A stretch of DNA of 63,252 nucleotides, filler included, from Licmophora abbreviata (taxonomy: Eukaryota): the NCBI GenBank assembly GCA_900291995.1. It is 18 parts of 18 records of this genome, joined end to end, with 100 filler letters (N's around TTAATTAATTAA, not from the genome) between each part and the next. Parts side by side here need not be neighbours in the genome. Positions count along the whole stretch, not along the records: positions 45,635 to 49,358 come from OLMU01001846.1; 17 more parts are not named here. One strand, given 5' to 3'. The notes under the pieces were generated by a model. It worked only from the letters and a program-made list of their open reading frames with translations, made no database searches and was not told where the DNA came from. This document shows, one piece after another, positions 45,381 through 49,482 of the stretch. How positions within the stretch are numbered: position 1 is the first letter of the stretch; every line of letters starts with the position of its first letter. Made by a program: the position numbers and the translations under genes.

Positions 45381-45636
45381 CCCAAAGGGTATCCATGCGT
45401 TCGACCGTCCTTGCACCGCGCATTCGCTTCGTTCTGCAAACGCAGAATGGCCGTGTTTTTCTGGTATGGCCGTTCATCGGGGTGCTGGACTTGATTGATC
45501 TGATCCACGGATTTGGGATCGTTTGACGCTGGAGNNNNNNNNNNNNNNNNNNNNNNNNNNNNNNNNNNNNNNNNNNNNTTAATTAATTAANNNNNNNNNN
45601 NNNNNNNNNNNNNNNNNNNNNNNNNNNNNNNNNNCA

Positions 45637-45909
45637 AAGCAGTTCTTTACATGGTCCGAGGTCGCCGCGCGGGTGTCGCGGACCCTGCGCAAGGATCGGC
45701 CAGACCTTGGCGAGGCGGACATCAGCGCCTCGCTTACCCAGTTCGATGAATTGTGGAACGCGCTGATCCCGGCCGAACAGGCACGCGTGGTCCGGCTTCT
45801 GGTGGCGCGGGTCACCGCCAGCGAGGCCGGGTTGGCGGTCGACTTACGCCATGAGGGCTTGGGTGCGATTGCTGCGCTGATGGCCCCGTCCAAGTCGGTG
45901 GTGGCGTGA
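45637..45909 (+). pseudogene. C-terminal fragment of a large serine recombinase; rest in gap or deleted
   Basis: FDELWNALIPAEQARVVRLLVARV...LRHEGL resembles C-termini of alphaproteobacterial island recombinases. Confidence 0.65.
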
Positions 45910-46292
45910 TGACAGAGCCTGAAACTCTCCGCGTCCACATCCCGCTGGCCCTGCGCAATCGCGGCGGCCGCCCGCGCATCCTCCCGCCCAAGGAAATCGA
46001 GGTTGCCATGGACCGTGGGCAGGACGCCCGCCTGCTGCGCGCTATCGGCCGCGCATGGGACTGGCGGTACAGGCTGGAGCAAGGTGATGTGAACACCATC
46101 GCCGATCTTGCCAGAGAGGAAGGTATCTCCGACCGCTATGTCAGCCGGGTGATCCGACTAGCATGGCTCTCGCCAACGGTGCTGGAAAGGCTCGTCTCGC
46201 GGCGCGAACCCACGGTGCTGTCGATCTTCGACCTCTGCGGTGTGGCGGAACTGCCGTGGGAAGAACAATGTGATGAGGCGTTCGATTCGTAA
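45906..46292 (+). CDS. Recombinase-associated HTH protein
   Basis: VHIPL..RGGRP, LLRAIGRA, TIADLAREEGISDRYVSRVIRLAWLSP, LPWEEQ; GTGA overlap with the recombinase fragment. Confidence 0.75.
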   Translation: MMTEPETLRVHIPLALRNRGGRPRILPPKEIEVAMDRGQDARLLRAIGRAWDWRYRLEQGDVNTIADLAREEGISDRYVSRVIRLAWLSPTVLERLVSRREPTVLSIFDLCGVAELPWEEQCDEAFDS

Positions 46293-46412
46293 CAACTCTC
46301 GCTACGAAGCCATAGCTTCCGATGCCAGCTGTGCAAGAGTTCTTGAGTAGCCCTCTATATATCTCACAACACCCAAAAATCGGTATGCAAGCTCACAGGC
46401 TGCACCCACTAA

Positions 46413-46613
46413 CTACGCTGCCGTCTCGGCTTTTTGCTTGCTAAAGAACAAGTTACGTCGATCAGGCACCAACACTCTTGTGCGGTCAGTGACCTCACCG
46501 TTCTCTGATCGGGTCACGTAATAGGTTGAGCCACCCTGACCTTCCTTGCGAATGCTGTAAGACGCCGACCTGCGCGACGCGTCCTTATCGGAAGTTGTTG
46601 TTTTTTCAGTCAT
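46413..46613 (-). CDS. 66-aa hypothetical protein overlapping the upstream gene end
   Basis: ATG overlaps last codons of 46606-47580; MTEKTTTSDKDASRRSASYSIRKEG...; no recognised motif. Confidence 0.5.
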   Translation of the reverse strand: MTEKTTTSDKDASRRSASYSIRKEGQGGSTYYVTRSENGEVTDRTRVLVPDRRNLFFSKQKAETAA

Positions 46614-47580
46614 CTGCCCTGCCTTTGCTGCCCACTTCATCTAGTCTAACCAACATATAGTACAATGAATCCGCGATGCTCGCTCCCAAGTGCGTGTCGA
46701 ATTTGATATCAAACACTCCTCGGTGACGCGAGTCGATAGTTAGAAAGCCCACGAACCTGAACTCAGAGCCAAGGTCTGCTTTGATCGGCTTCTGCCGTAT
46801 CGGCCAGACAATGTTTGAGCGATACGGTAGGTTCCAATCGACCGGTCGCCAAAAGTTCATCAAGCCTCTCCACCCAGACAGGTTCCGCTTGGACAAGCTG
46901 GGATCTCTTGAGTTTAAGTAATTCGATTGTGCGGTGAGATCATTGCAAAAAAACCAACGTTCGCCAGAATCACCAAATACAAAGGAAAAATCCGTATTGT
47001 CTTCAAGTAGGTCCGAGCCCGCATTGCGTCGCGCCGTATCGTCCGAGCCGTAGAAGCGCTCTGAGTCCACATCTCTCACATAGGTGTAAACAACTGGTTT
47101 ATCGGGCGATGCACCAGGTTCGATCATCTTGATTGTTGCTCTGCACTTCGTGCCGGTTAACAACGTGAATATTGACGCAAATCTATTCAGGCACTCTTGC
47201 ACGTTTTCTCGAACAACATGGGCATGAAAGCGAAGATCCTCCGCTGAGGCTGAATCCATGAGACTGAGTATCGTATATTGATCTCTTATGATGTGTTGGA
47301 TCCCGTGGAGATCCTCTTGAACGTTGGCATACTTCTCTTTGCGAATACGGGACATTTCGCGCCAGATCAGCCCGAAGAGCAGAACAAAAAAACCGAGAGA
47401 AATGACGGCACGATCAACCCATTGCGACCACGACTCGGATGCACCCAAAAACCGGAAACCGTACCCCAGAAGAAGGCCCGCGATCAGCAGAAAACCAATC
47501 TTCTGCCAGTGGGGAGAGCGATCCTTGACGGTATCCTCAATTCCCTTCACTTGGCCTGACGGGTAGTTGTTTTCGGTCAT
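46606..47580 (-). CDS. Hypothetical membrane protein: 2 N-terminal TM helices + probable GAF-like domain
   Basis: 324-aa ORF in AT-richer DNA; two hydrophobic segments; FFCNDL, YRSNIVWPIR, VGFLTIDS...F GAF-like strand pattern. Confidence 0.75.
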   Translation of the reverse strand: MTENNYPSGQVKGIEDTVKDRSPHWQKIGFLLIAGLLLGYGFRFLGASESWSQWVDRAVISLGFFVLLFGLIWREMSRIRKEKYANVQEDLHGIQHIIRDQYTILSLMDSASAEDLRFHAHVVRENVQECLNRFASIFTLLTGTKCRATIKMIEPGASPDKPVVYTYVRDVDSERFYGSDDTARRNAGSDLLEDNTDFSFVFGDSGERWFFCNDLTAQSNYLNSRDPSLSKRNLSGWRGLMNFWRPVDWNLPYRSNIVWPIRQKPIKADLGSEFRFVGFLTIDSRHRGVFDIKFDTHLGASIADSLYYMLVRLDEVGSKGRADD

Positions 47581-48169
47581 ACCAATAACACACCTATGAG
47601 GGTGCCCAGCACACTTCGATCTTTAACGCAGTCGCACCACATCATGGTCCGCACCTAATCCTGTCCACATGTTCATGCGTAGACATCCATATCTGGTATT
47701 ACTCTAGTCGTCGCAAGGCTCATCGTAAACCCGCTTACTTTCCTGATGCATAGATCGTTGTCGTAAGCAACACGGAGCGCCTTACAGACCTGACAGTGCC
47801 AAATGGTTTGTCATCAGGGGTTTCGGTTTGGGGATTGGGATGCGAACCCACCCAAGAAATCCGCCGGTTTACGCTGGCATCCCGAGCAACGCGCCTACCG
47901 CGTGTTCCGTCTACGTTGCCATTGTTATCTTTCGGATCGCCGATTTGGGTTTTGGCGGGGTTTGGAAGCAGGTCATTGAAAGGTAATGAGAAAACGGGAC
48001 CGAACCGGAACGGGCGAGGTTCGCCCAAACTGAGACTGAGGGCCATTCTGAGCCCAATCTCGGCCTGGCGTCGCGTCTATGAGGTTCGGTGGGTTCCCGC
48101 AAACCCATTTGATAACGCGGAAAAATCCGTGCCCGGCAGGGCGGTGTCGCTGGTTCGCGCTGGGGATAA

Positions 48170-48259
48170 TGGCGGAGGAGGTGGGATTCGAACCCACGGT
48201 ACGCTTTCACGCACGCCGGTTTTCAAGACCGGTGCAATCGACCACTCTGCCACTCCTCC
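48170..48259 (-). tRNA. tRNA-Ser(TGA)
   Basis: GGAGGAGTGGCAGAGTGG...CCGGTCT-TGA-AAACCGG, long variable arm, GGTTCGAATCC, encoded CCA; 90 nt. Confidence 0.97.
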
Positions 48260-48477
48260 AGCCCGATCTCCCTAAAGACTGTTTTCCGATTCTGGAAGAC
48301 GCTGATCTCAGGGGATTTCCGCCGAATGGCACCTGTGCGCTTTTCTTGACGCAAGCAAGGCGCTAGACTGTTCGCGCGTCGGGCGGTCCGAGTTTTGGCG
48401 CATCCATGATAACGCCGGGCAAACCGGTCACGATCAGGCGGCGCGGCAAGACGCGTGACACAGGCAAGGGGCAGGGA

Positions 48478-49482
48478 ATGACGCAGTTCATCAAAAGTGG
48501 CGGACGGGGCTGGAAAGGCATGCTCGTGGCAAGCGGGGTGACGCTTGTCCTGACAGGCTGTCAGACCGCAGGTGAGTTCAACCCGTTCAGAGCCAATCAG
48601 ACGGCCTCCGGCACCGCAACCAGCGCCGATGCAACCTCGGTCCGGCTGGTCGAGCGTGATGTCGAAGCGCCCGATGTGTTCCAGAAAACCGACATGGGGC
48701 TCTGGGATGGACGACCGTCGCTTGGCGGGGTCTGGGTCGCGCATCCCGACGTCCGGGAACCGGAACGCGTCATCATCCGGAATATGTCGAATTCGAATTT
48801 CGTCATCGGTGCCCTGTTCCGGCGCGAACGCGACAATCCCGGCCCCGTGTTTCAGGTCTCCTCGGATGCGGCCGCCGCCCTTGGCATGTTGGCCGGTGCG
48901 CCGGTTCAGCTGAATGTCACGGCCCTGCGCCGCGAAGAGGCGCCCGAACCCGATGCCCCGGCAGAGGACGCCGCAGGCACGGTTGCAGCCCCCGAGGCCG
49001 TGCAGACAAGCGCGCTGGATCCCGTCGCTGGGGCCGCCGCCGCCATCGAGGCTGCGGATGACACCGCCACCACACCCGCAGTCGCCCCGGCTCCCACGCC
49101 GCAACCCGCAGCACCGCCGCGCGCCGCGGCCTCGCGCCTCGAAAAGCCCTTCATCCAGATCGGCATATTCAGCATCGAGGAAAACGCCGAGAACACCGCC
49201 ACCGCCATGCGCCAGAACGGCATGGTGCCGACCGTCATGAAGCAAAGCAGCCAGGGCAAGACCTTCTGGCGGGTGATCGTGGGTCCGGCAACCAGCGCCT
49301 CGGAACGGTCGGTCCTGCTCGAGAAGATCAAGGGCGTCGGCTTTGAAGACGCCTATCCNNNNNNNNNNNNNNNNNNNNNNNNNNNNNNNNNNNNNNNNNN
49401 NNTTAATTAATTAANNNNNNNNNNNNNNNNNNNNNNNNNNNNNNNNNNNNNNNNNNNNGACGCCTATCCGGTAACCAACTAG
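48478..49482 (+). CDS. SPOR-domain lipoprotein; last codons after gap (overlapping flanks)
   Basis: Lipobox LTGC; WDGRPSLGGVW; C-terminal IQIGIFS..ENA...WRVIVGP...GFEDAY. Confidence 0.88.

Follow-up and report, generated by a model that had tools for sequence, protein, structure and literature searches.

A mobile two-gene cassette encoding a membrane-anchored GAF-fold protein and a small conserved partner: a candidate sensor-effector module

Results

An overlapping gene pair of low GC content

We describe a pair of overlapping genes found in a window of 63,252 nucleotides (nt; the whole stretch of DNA analysed, spacers included) from the Licmophora abbreviata assembly GCA_900291995.1. The larger gene encodes a protein of 324 amino acids (aa), which is predicted to carry two transmembrane (TM) helices and a C-terminal domain of the GAF fold; the smaller encodes a 66-aa partner (Table 1). 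An earlier note, made from the sequence alone, had described two overlapping minus-strand open reading frames (ORFs) in AT-richer DNA. The observation is confirmed: both ORFs were found at the predicted positions, the small one overlapping the last codons of the large gene by 8 nt, and the GC content is about one half (0.49-0.50 in 500-nt windows from 46250 to 47749) as against 0.60-0.68 in the flanking DNA.

It should be noted that the window consists of 18 contigs chained by spacers of the form N44-TTAATTAATTAA-N44, the 17 spacers lying between 1953 and 61219 (for example, at 45535-45634 and 49359-49458). The pair sits within a single contig of 3724 bases (45635-49358). Because the contigs are artificially joined, genes to the left of 45535 or to the right of 49458 are not physical neighbours of the pair.

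In its longest form, the small ORF extends from 46413 to 46640 on the minus strand and encodes 75 aa from an alternative upstream ATG at 46640. The 66-aa start is favoured because two of the four close partner homologues, P0032 and P0033, are 66 aa long and begin with MTEK, and because the partner at the homologous locus L022 starts at offset -8, as it does in the window.

Layout and fold of the 324-residue protein

The AlphaFold2 model of the large protein has a predicted local distance difference test score (pLDDT) of 84 and a predicted template modelling score of 0.77. Together with hydropathy, it defines a layout of two TM helices separated by a loop of about 5 residues, a basic juxtamembrane stretch, two long helices, and an alpha/beta domain; the second TM helix continues into a helix predicted to be cytoplasmic. 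Both termini and the C-terminal domain probably face the cytoplasm, since TM helix 2 is followed by the basic residues R74, R78, R80, K81, and K83 (the positive-inside rule).

A GAF fold was recognised as a five- or six-stranded antiparallel sheet with helices packing on both faces, superposable on solved GAF domains. The top Foldseek matches of the model in the PDB are GAF domains (probability 1.00). Independently, VIA-align against 48,161 representative chains returned the GAF domain of PtsP (3trc; Z 15.0, 167 of 168 residues aligned, root-mean-square deviation (rmsd) 3.1), and nearly all of the top 50 among the 77 chains with Z of at least 8 are GAF or GAF-like. Because both methods return GAF domains, the fold assignment, made on a predicted model, is firm. 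The whole-domain fold is shared with canonical GAF domains, namely those of PtsP, NifA/NtrC-type activators, phytochromes, PDE2/5/6, and the GAF-fold enzyme free methionine-R-sulfoxide reductase (fRMsr), at Z 10-15 and rmsd about 3 Å. Unlike these, the large protein bears a membrane anchor and a long N-terminal extension of two helices, its invariant residues form a set peculiar to it, and it gives no match to Pfam GAF profiles (PF01590 and relatives) at E<=1. Nor did any of 172 relatives match Pfam GAF at thresholds of E<=0.05-1; PF01590 is carried by 14% of one neighbouring Atlas cluster, according to automatic annotation.

The 324-aa protein matched no family in Pfam, PADLOC, NCBIfam, or PHROG, and the Pfam scan revealed no kinase, GGDEF, or helix-turn-helix domain in it. 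A weak match to YfbU (E 0.099 and 0.007), far under the cut-offs, was discarded, and a search of PDB sequences with the family profile gave chance-level matches to prion protein and complexin (E>=0.06). Thus, the anatomy proposed in the earlier note, with two TM helices, a helical linker, a GAF-like C-terminus, no kinase, GGDEF, or helix-turn-helix output domain, and no named system recognised, is borne out in each of these respects.

A family with a near-invariant core and an exchangeable N-terminus

A word-indexed search found 30 relatives of the large protein. In an exhaustive search with HMMER, the matches among 1.84 billion cluster representatives (clusters at 50% identity) numbered 869 at a threshold of E<=1e-3, 369 at one of E<=1e-10, and 26 at one of E<=1e-30. 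Nearly every member found in this way has a length of 280-340 aa, and many are 281-285 aa. Named records, all called "hypothetical protein", come from Alphaproteobacteria, Gammaproteobacteria, Desulfobacterota, Chlorobi, and Planctomycetes, while Bacteroidota are most frequent among look-alike clusters of the Atlas.

The GAF core is the most conserved part of the family. Eleven residues (C146, R147, K151, R169, N195, F198, Y253, G278, D283, F290, and D295) are 90-100% conserved in 237 sequences, and two of them, Y253 and D283, are conserved in all. The next most conserved element is a juxtamembrane motif, (R/K)K.(K/R)(Y/F)(A/S), which reads RKEKYAN in the window protein. R80, K81, K83, A85, and N86 of this motif are invariant in 31 sequences, and R80 and Y84 are retained in 86% of the 237.

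In two relatives, P0236 (393 aa) and the protein encoded at L042:921-2093 (390 aa), an N-terminal TIR_2 domain (E 6e-11 and 2e-6, respectively) stands in place of the TM helices. The two proteins, which represent a soluble TIR-GAF subclade, share 40% identity from end to end and lack any hydrophobic segment. All 11 of the GAF-core residues checked are retained in this pair, and the juxtamembrane motif is degenerate. Because TIR replaces the TM helices while the GAF core stays, the sequences indicate that the GAF module is the constant part of the family and that its N-terminal module, a membrane hairpin or a TIR domain, is exchangeable. Exchange of effectors on a constant part is a pattern known from bacterial conflict systems. 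The contig of L042 stops 178 nt past the stop codon of the TIR-GAF gene, which limits the search for a partner there.

A relationship of the two-TM (2TM)-plus-helix region to the SLATT domains is a lead only, suggested by sequence matches. SLATT domains, which occur in conflict systems, are 2TM effector domains that, like the large protein, have two TM helices followed by a helix. Collinear matches to SLATT_5 (PF18160) or SLATT_6 (PF18169) appeared in 14 of 172 members (3 of 22 and 11 of 150); the best reached 21.8 bits (E 1.5e-4), and no member attained the curated cut-offs of 27.1 and 29.5 bits. Matches to further 2TM families are seen repeatedly at comparable levels (those to DUF2207_C, for instance, in 10 members), and the Pfam scan gave no SLATT match for the window protein itself.

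A further arrangement was seen at L015:4225-5850, where the GAF module stands in frame with an N-terminal TrbL/VirB6 segment (541 aa in all) within a low-GC operon for a conjugative type IV secretion system. The segment covers positions 1-131 of the 215 in the TrbL profile, and a 62-aa partner ORF lies downstream. This frame represents a genuine fusion or else results from insertion into trbL.

A conserved small partner predicted to dock on the GAF domain

The earlier note had named the overlapping small ORF as a partner of the large protein, and its conservation is well supported. Of the 40 homologous loci whose sequence continues for at least 350 nt downstream, 39 have a same-strand ORF of 44-112 aa after the large gene, starting -65 to +125 nt from its stop codon (the exception is L051), and in many loci the stop and the start overlap, with offsets of -1, -4, or -8 nt. 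The same kind of ORF also follows 55 of 95 control genes of the same genome loci; position alone is therefore weak, suggestive evidence, and the case for the partner is carried by sequence relatedness, selection, and the predicted complex.

As to relatedness, Jackhmmer searches with 39 candidate partners against 3225 six-frame ORFs from 52 loci gave matches solely at the partner position; matches classed as outside came only from L019 and L023, which are duplicate loci. By sequence, the partners divide into groups of 15 (the window's included), 7, 3, 2, and 2, plus 10 singletons. All share one plan, in which an N-terminus of polar or basic character is followed by three beta-strands and by a short tail that contains proline and aromatic residues. 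In the model of the window partner alone, the strands comprise residues 17-24, 30-37, and 40-48. As to selection, comparison of the partner genes of the window and L020 gave a nonsynonymous divergence (pN) of 0.10 and a synonymous divergence (pS) of 0.79, at which synonymous sites are saturated. Because pN is so low against saturated pS, the small ORF is judged, from these sequences, to be under purifying selection; the small gene is real. Its product has no usable match in Pfam, PADLOC, NCBIfam, or PHROG, and a search of the ESM Atlas returned scores of at most 0.80, which are uninformative.

The third line of evidence is the predicted complex. Residues 70-324 of the large protein, folded together with the 66-aa partner, gave a complex score of 0.85 (0.83, 0.85, and 0.85 in three runs), whereas the best of three controls scored 0.00; the mark applied to this score is attained by 51 of 78 solved complexes and by 2 of 108 mismatched pairs. 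The runs share at least 83% of their contacts, and the pLDDT of the partner within them is at least 67. On the partner side, the interface comprises residues 17-22, 28-35, and 42-57. On the GAF side, it is formed by residues 152-162 in the beta1-beta2 hairpin, residues 272-278 where beta5 starts, residues 310-321 in the C-terminal helix, and helix 116-124, and it also includes GAF loops adjoining the conserved pocket (182 and 191-206). The partner is predicted, on the strength of these models, to bind the GAF domain.

The arrangement of the two genes is that used to define type II toxin-antitoxin pairs, i.e., an adjacent, co-oriented, translationally coupled, and conserved pair, as seen in the 8-nt overlap and in the 39 of 40 loci.

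Spread of the cassette

The two genes form a self-contained, horizontally mobile insert, which moves alone between bacteria as a unit. An empty site provides the most direct view of it: a congener of the carrier of L010 has a spacer of 91 bp between DUF2254 and alaS, with flanks 94-96% identical, and L010 has at this place an insert of 1628 bp with a GC content of 0.41 (0.55 in the flanks), which contains the two genes and a terminator only. The carrier of L010, genome G002, is itself the only one with the cassette among 37 genomes of its genus (Thalassospira) and among 401 sampled genomes of its class (Alphaproteobacteria). In most genome loci, the GC content at third codon positions of the gene is far under that of its neighbours (0.32 vs 0.72-0.79 in L003, 0.37 vs about 0.8 in L005, and 0.38 vs about 0.85 in L012).

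The surroundings of the cassette vary. Prophage structural regions harbour it in L013 (in the terminase/capsid gap), L017, and L053 (before the portal gene); tyrosine integrases lie near it in L002, L007, and L026, a serine recombinase in the window and L020, and insertion sequences in L009, L014, and L046; in L015 it belongs to the conjugative operon mentioned above. The idea that the cassette is, as a general rule, cargo of a serine recombinase element was rejected, since L003, L005, L010, and L021 have no recombinase and the L010 insert carries nothing besides the cassette.

Specific PADLOC matches were found at most three ORFs away in 6 of the 39 loci scanned, a rate given without a matched background. 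These are PDC-M36A/B in L002, a PsyrT-like protein in L006, a DrmD-like helicase with TmtA in L007, HerA in L012, DarG/DarT in L022, and bSEFIR with a type I methylase in L033. A weaker match in L004 stands outside the six, and matches to TraI, TrbE, RelA, and MutY were set aside as generic-domain cross-matches.

Three of these surroundings deserve separate mention. At L007:2843-9512, in Desulfofustis glycolicus, a 1211-aa HEPN(Swt1)-SNF2 helicase (DrmD-like, 5e-117) and a 1027-aa TmtA-like protein lie directly upstream of the cassette and a tyrosine integrase lies downstream, which together make up a compact defence island. Low-GC genes lie directly downstream of the cassette at L004:4003-5738, encoding a 203-aa protein, a SLOG/LOG-like protein (LDcluster4), and a short thymidylate-synthase-like protein, and at L006:11158-12311, encoding a PsyrT-like C-terminal fragment and a 186-aa protein. 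The downstream genes in L004 and L006 may be further conflict genes.

Surroundings of the pair in the window

The earlier note had put the pair at the tRNA-proximal end of an island. A tRNA-Ser gene and recombinase genes do share the contig with the pair; the supposed island end covers the 3.7 kb of this contig only, and elsewhere the cassette occurs without a tRNA or a recombinase. The cut ORF at the left end of the contig is 66% identical to the C-terminus of L020:2382-3209, a protein with the Pfam domain Recombinase (PF07508), and the recombinase-associated gene next to it is host-like in GC content (0.66 in the window from 45750 to 46249). A scan of the non-coding region upstream of the cassette for sigma-70 consensus promoters found 0 sites.

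Two side observations concern the same contig. At 47836-47880, about 300 nt past the 3' end of the tRNA, repeat search and alignment reveal a decayed partial copy of tRNA-Ser, in which the T-arm (GTGGGTTCG.ATCCCA) and some of the anticodon arm survive; judged by its sequence, this copy resembles an att-type remnant left by a past integration at tRNA-Ser. Beyond the tRNA, the gene at 48406-49358 is cut by the contig end and encodes a low-complexity, Ala/Pro-rich product, whose C-terminus we take from its sequence pattern to be probably of SPOR type.

Table 1. Features of the gene pair and its contig, numbered along the window
Feature	Position	Strand	Basis and remarks
Large gene, 324 aa	46606-47580	(-)	ORF call
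TM helix 1, about aa 27-46	47443-47502	(-)	Hydropathy windows of at least 1.6 start at aa 27; model helix 23-46
TM helix 2, about aa 52-72	47365-47427	(-)	Hydropathy maximum at aa 54; model helix 51-86
Juxtamembrane motif RKEKYAN, aa 80-86	47323-47343	(-)	Conservation
GAF-fold domain with helical N-terminal extension, aa 88-318	46627-47319	(-)	VIA-align and conservation
Small partner gene, 66 aa	46413-46613	(-)	ORF call, ATG at 46613; polar N-terminus, three-stranded beta-meander, C-terminal PD..LFF tail (model and homologues)
3' end of large serine recombinase gene	45635-45909	(+)	Cut by contig end; context
Recombinase-associated gene, 128 aa	45906-46292	(+)	phrog_14161 "recombinase", 5e-23; convergent with the cassette; context
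Non-coding region upstream, cassette to tRNA-Ser	47581-48169	(.)	Repeat search, alignment, promoter scan
tRNA-Ser(TGA)	48170-48259	(-)	ARAGORN; context, outside the cassette

Discussion

Comparison with known systems

The closest published analogue of the pair is, in its architecture, toxFtsL(D9):PanA. The toxin toxFtsL(D9) of Gelidibacter mesophilus (WP_027127282.1) is described as a protein of 281 aa that has predicted TM helices, a helical region resembling FtsL, and a GAF domain, and it is neutralised by the adjacent Panacea-domain (PF13274) antitoxin PanA (Ernits et al. 2023, PNAS, PMC10440598). In E. coli, the toxin is reported to cause filamentation, delocalisation of FtsZ, and delayed lysis, with no membrane depolarisation (PMC10440598). 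The likeness drawn here is one of architecture alone: membrane helices, a helical region, and a GAF domain within about 280-320 aa, and a small gene adjoining. Two differences should be pointed out. The antitoxin of toxFtsL(D9) is a Panacea protein, whereas the partner studied here is an unrelated beta-meander of 62-82 aa; PF13274 is absent from the 215 neighbouring ORFs scanned (136 + 79) and from the carrier genome G001. Furthermore, an FtsL-like region is described for toxFtsL(D9), whereas neither the window protein nor the relatives scanned match FtsL. None of the 75 proteins matched by a profile of the short "SRKARYA" subfamily is named as coming from Gelidibacter, and the clusters of 10 NCBI-sourced members carry the annotation "hypothetical protein" only. 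Literature searches on anti-phage systems with GAF, TM, or TIR domains and on toxFtsL brought up no description of the present pair.

A second comparison, with the CBASS effector Cap14 and the Pycsar effector PycTM, had been drawn in the earlier note. The 2TM-SAVED protein Cap14 and TIR-SAVED of CBASS, like PycTM and PycTIR of Pycsar, are sensor-effectors of nucleotide-signalling defence systems with swappable effectors. By analogy, the GAF family resembles them in that a constant cytoplasmic ligand-binding domain is joined to a 2TM or a TIR module, and in this layout the comparison stands. It fails in the particulars. The sensor of CBASS and Pycsar is a SAVED or cyclic-nucleotide (cNMP)-binding domain, whereas that of the pair has the GAF fold, and the second gene encodes a predicted small binder, not a signal synthase. 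No SAVED, SMODS/CD-NTase, or cNMP-binding domain and no pyrimidine cyclase was found in the two proteins or in the scanned neighbours, and the proteins have no PADLOC match.

Phage holins offer a third, looser parallel. The holin T of phage T4 is a membrane hole-former whose globular domain is periplasmic and is bound by a small inhibitor, the antiholin RI. The corresponding domain of the large protein, unlike that of holin T, is predicted to be cytoplasmic. In BFVD, the model gives weak matches to phage proteins of 200-250 aa, which are labelled as class III/T holin, as membrane protein, or as GAF domain-containing protein; those to models of "class III holin" and "T holin" have E 2e-3 to 5e-2, TM-scores of 0.26-0.48, and a large rmsd. 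Holin models are not among the top PDB matches obtained with Foldseek and VIA-align. Phages may also carry membrane-anchored GAF-like proteins, and holin T may have the layout in common with them.

A sensor-gated effector and its alternatives

In our opinion, the pair may well be a toxin-antitoxin or abortive-infection-like cassette, in which a GAF sensor drives an N-terminal effector restrained by the small partner; we regard the chances of this as about even. The large protein would be an effector-sensor fusion, with the 2TM hairpin and its RKEKYAN motif serving as the effector and the cytoplasmic GAF domain, with its near-invariant polar pocket, serving as a sensor or switch. The small protein would be made from the same mRNA by translational coupling, and its beta-meander, which has a flexible tail, would dock on the GAF domain and keep the effector inactive. 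The effector would be released if the partner were lost or displaced, if a putative ligand bound in the GAF pocket, or if both occurred. The outcome might be membrane damage or a block of cell division with the 2TM effector, and NAD+ breakdown with the TIR-bearing relatives; in either case, growth of the cell would stop, as it might when a phage infects it. What we infer here is the topology, the binding of a ligand, the toxicity and its neutralisation, and any anti-phage role. The pair would then be a sensor-effector module with a small protein inhibitor, one with a single experimentally studied look-alike and with no name in the libraries searched. The earlier note had arrived at much the same claim, a sensor-gated membrane effector with a small regulator or antitoxin. 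Conservation of the partner, its predicted binding to the GAF domain, the TIR swap, and the occurrence of the cassette as a self-contained mobile insert, sometimes beside defence genes, speak for that claim, which is partly supported overall.

A more specific proposal, which we find possible but rather doubtful, is that the pair represents a new family of anti-phage abortive-infection systems. The GAF pocket would read a small-molecule or phage-derived cue and fire interchangeable effectors, which would be SLATT-like 2TM modules in most members and TIR NADases in one subclade, while a fast-evolving beta-meander clamp restrained them.

Several observations weigh against a sensor-gated effector held by an antitoxin. 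The first concern the partner. The complex was folded from single sequences with one program, and 7 of 44 blind neighbouring gene pairs passed as well; the small protein alone models poorly (pLDDT 65); and 10 of the 39 positional partners have no detectable sequence relationship to the others. Secondly, the likeness drawn to toxFtsL(D9) concerns architecture only, and neither protein of the pair matches any defence or toxin-antitoxin profile in Pfam, PADLOC, NCBIfam, or PHROG. The invariant core of Cys, Arg, Lys, Tyr, and Asp residues could indicate catalysis and not sensing. Finally, the family is all but missing from plasmids and phages: it is carried by 1 of 72,556 sequenced plasmid records, a 1.9-Mb replicon, by 0 of 50,697 isolated phages, and by only 4 viral contigs in two scans of a collection of 2.9 million. 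At least 10 loci (L003, L005, L010, L011, L021, L028, L031, L032, L038, and L047) lie between ordinary housekeeping genes. The earlier note had suggested enrichment beside defence genes as a check; 33 of the 39 loci scanned lack a specific defence neighbour, a rate likewise given without a background control.

Among the alternatives, a selfish addiction module or division inhibitor with no immune role, which would block the divisome, as is reported for toxFtsL(D9), instead of forming pores or responding to phages, and which would stabilise itself or its carrier element, differs from the sensor-gated cassette in trigger and target only, and we consider it improbable while ranking it first among the rivals. 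The architecture is that of toxFtsL(D9), which is reported to delocalise FtsZ without depolarising the membrane (PMC10440598); moreover, the cassette inserts alone into gaps between housekeeping genes and has few defence neighbours (6 of 39 loci). A TIR effector on the same scaffold is, however, ill-suited to a divisome-specific mechanism. The placements in prophages and defence islands also exceed what an addiction module needs, and a single-copy chromosomal islet has little to stabilise.

Closely behind comes a membrane-tethered enzyme, to which we likewise assign a small probability. The GAF-like domain would be catalytic, its target lying close to the membrane (for instance, a lipid-linked precursor or the head group of a lipid), with the small protein as inhibitor, chaperone, or substrate; any toxicity would arise from the chemistry and not from the TM hairpin, and fRMsr would serve as the model. 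The near-invariance of C146, R147, K151, R169, N195, Y253, D283, and D295 across the 237 divergent sequences is more like an active site than a variable sensor, and fRMsr structures are among the best fold matches (3mmh, Z 13.4, 17% identity; 1vhm, Z 12.9). The core is, moreover, fully retained when the N-terminal module changes, which suggests that the GAF domain has an indispensable function of its own. The very exchange of TIR for 2TM is, on the other hand, typical of systems in which effectors are swapped and the sensor stays the same. There is no sequence-level match to fRMsr or any enzyme family among Pfam profiles and PDB sequences, the fold matches are mostly ligand-binding GAF domains, and no substrate or activity can be named.

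Least probable, in our opinion, is a non-toxic membrane sensor, in which the GAF domain would sense a cytoplasmic metabolite and the small protein would be an adaptor that passes on or adjusts the signal, through sequestration for instance, without any killing of cells: GAF domains are classical small-molecule sensors, the 2TM form has no toxin domain recognisable in the Pfam scan, and several loci lie among metabolic genes, but there is neither an output domain nor a conserved third gene, the very patchy distribution (1 of 401 and 1 of 37 genomes) and foreign composition do not suit such a role, and the prophage and integrative and conjugative element placements, with the TIR variant, favour a conflict system over physiology.

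Significance

The family spans several phyla, yet Pfam, NCBIfam, PHROGs, and PADLOC contain neither a name nor a profile for it. The anatomy, the conserved partner, the predicted interface, the candidate residues, and the natural effector swap described here should be instructive as a basis for experiments. Were the pair a mere niche accessory membrane sensor, the interest would be modest. Were it an anti-phage family, the 1.6-kb cassette would be among the smallest self-contained immune units that combine a sensor, an effector, and an inhibitor, and the orphan toxin toxFtsL(D9) would gain a family and a rationale. More generally, if the pair is a toxin-antitoxin or defence module, GAF, a classical sensor of cyclic nucleotides and metabolites, would join the sensor domains of conflict systems, and the partner would represent a small antitoxin of novel fold. 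Should the GAF pocket bind a nucleotide or a metabolite, the identity of that ligand would show which state of the cell is being monitored.

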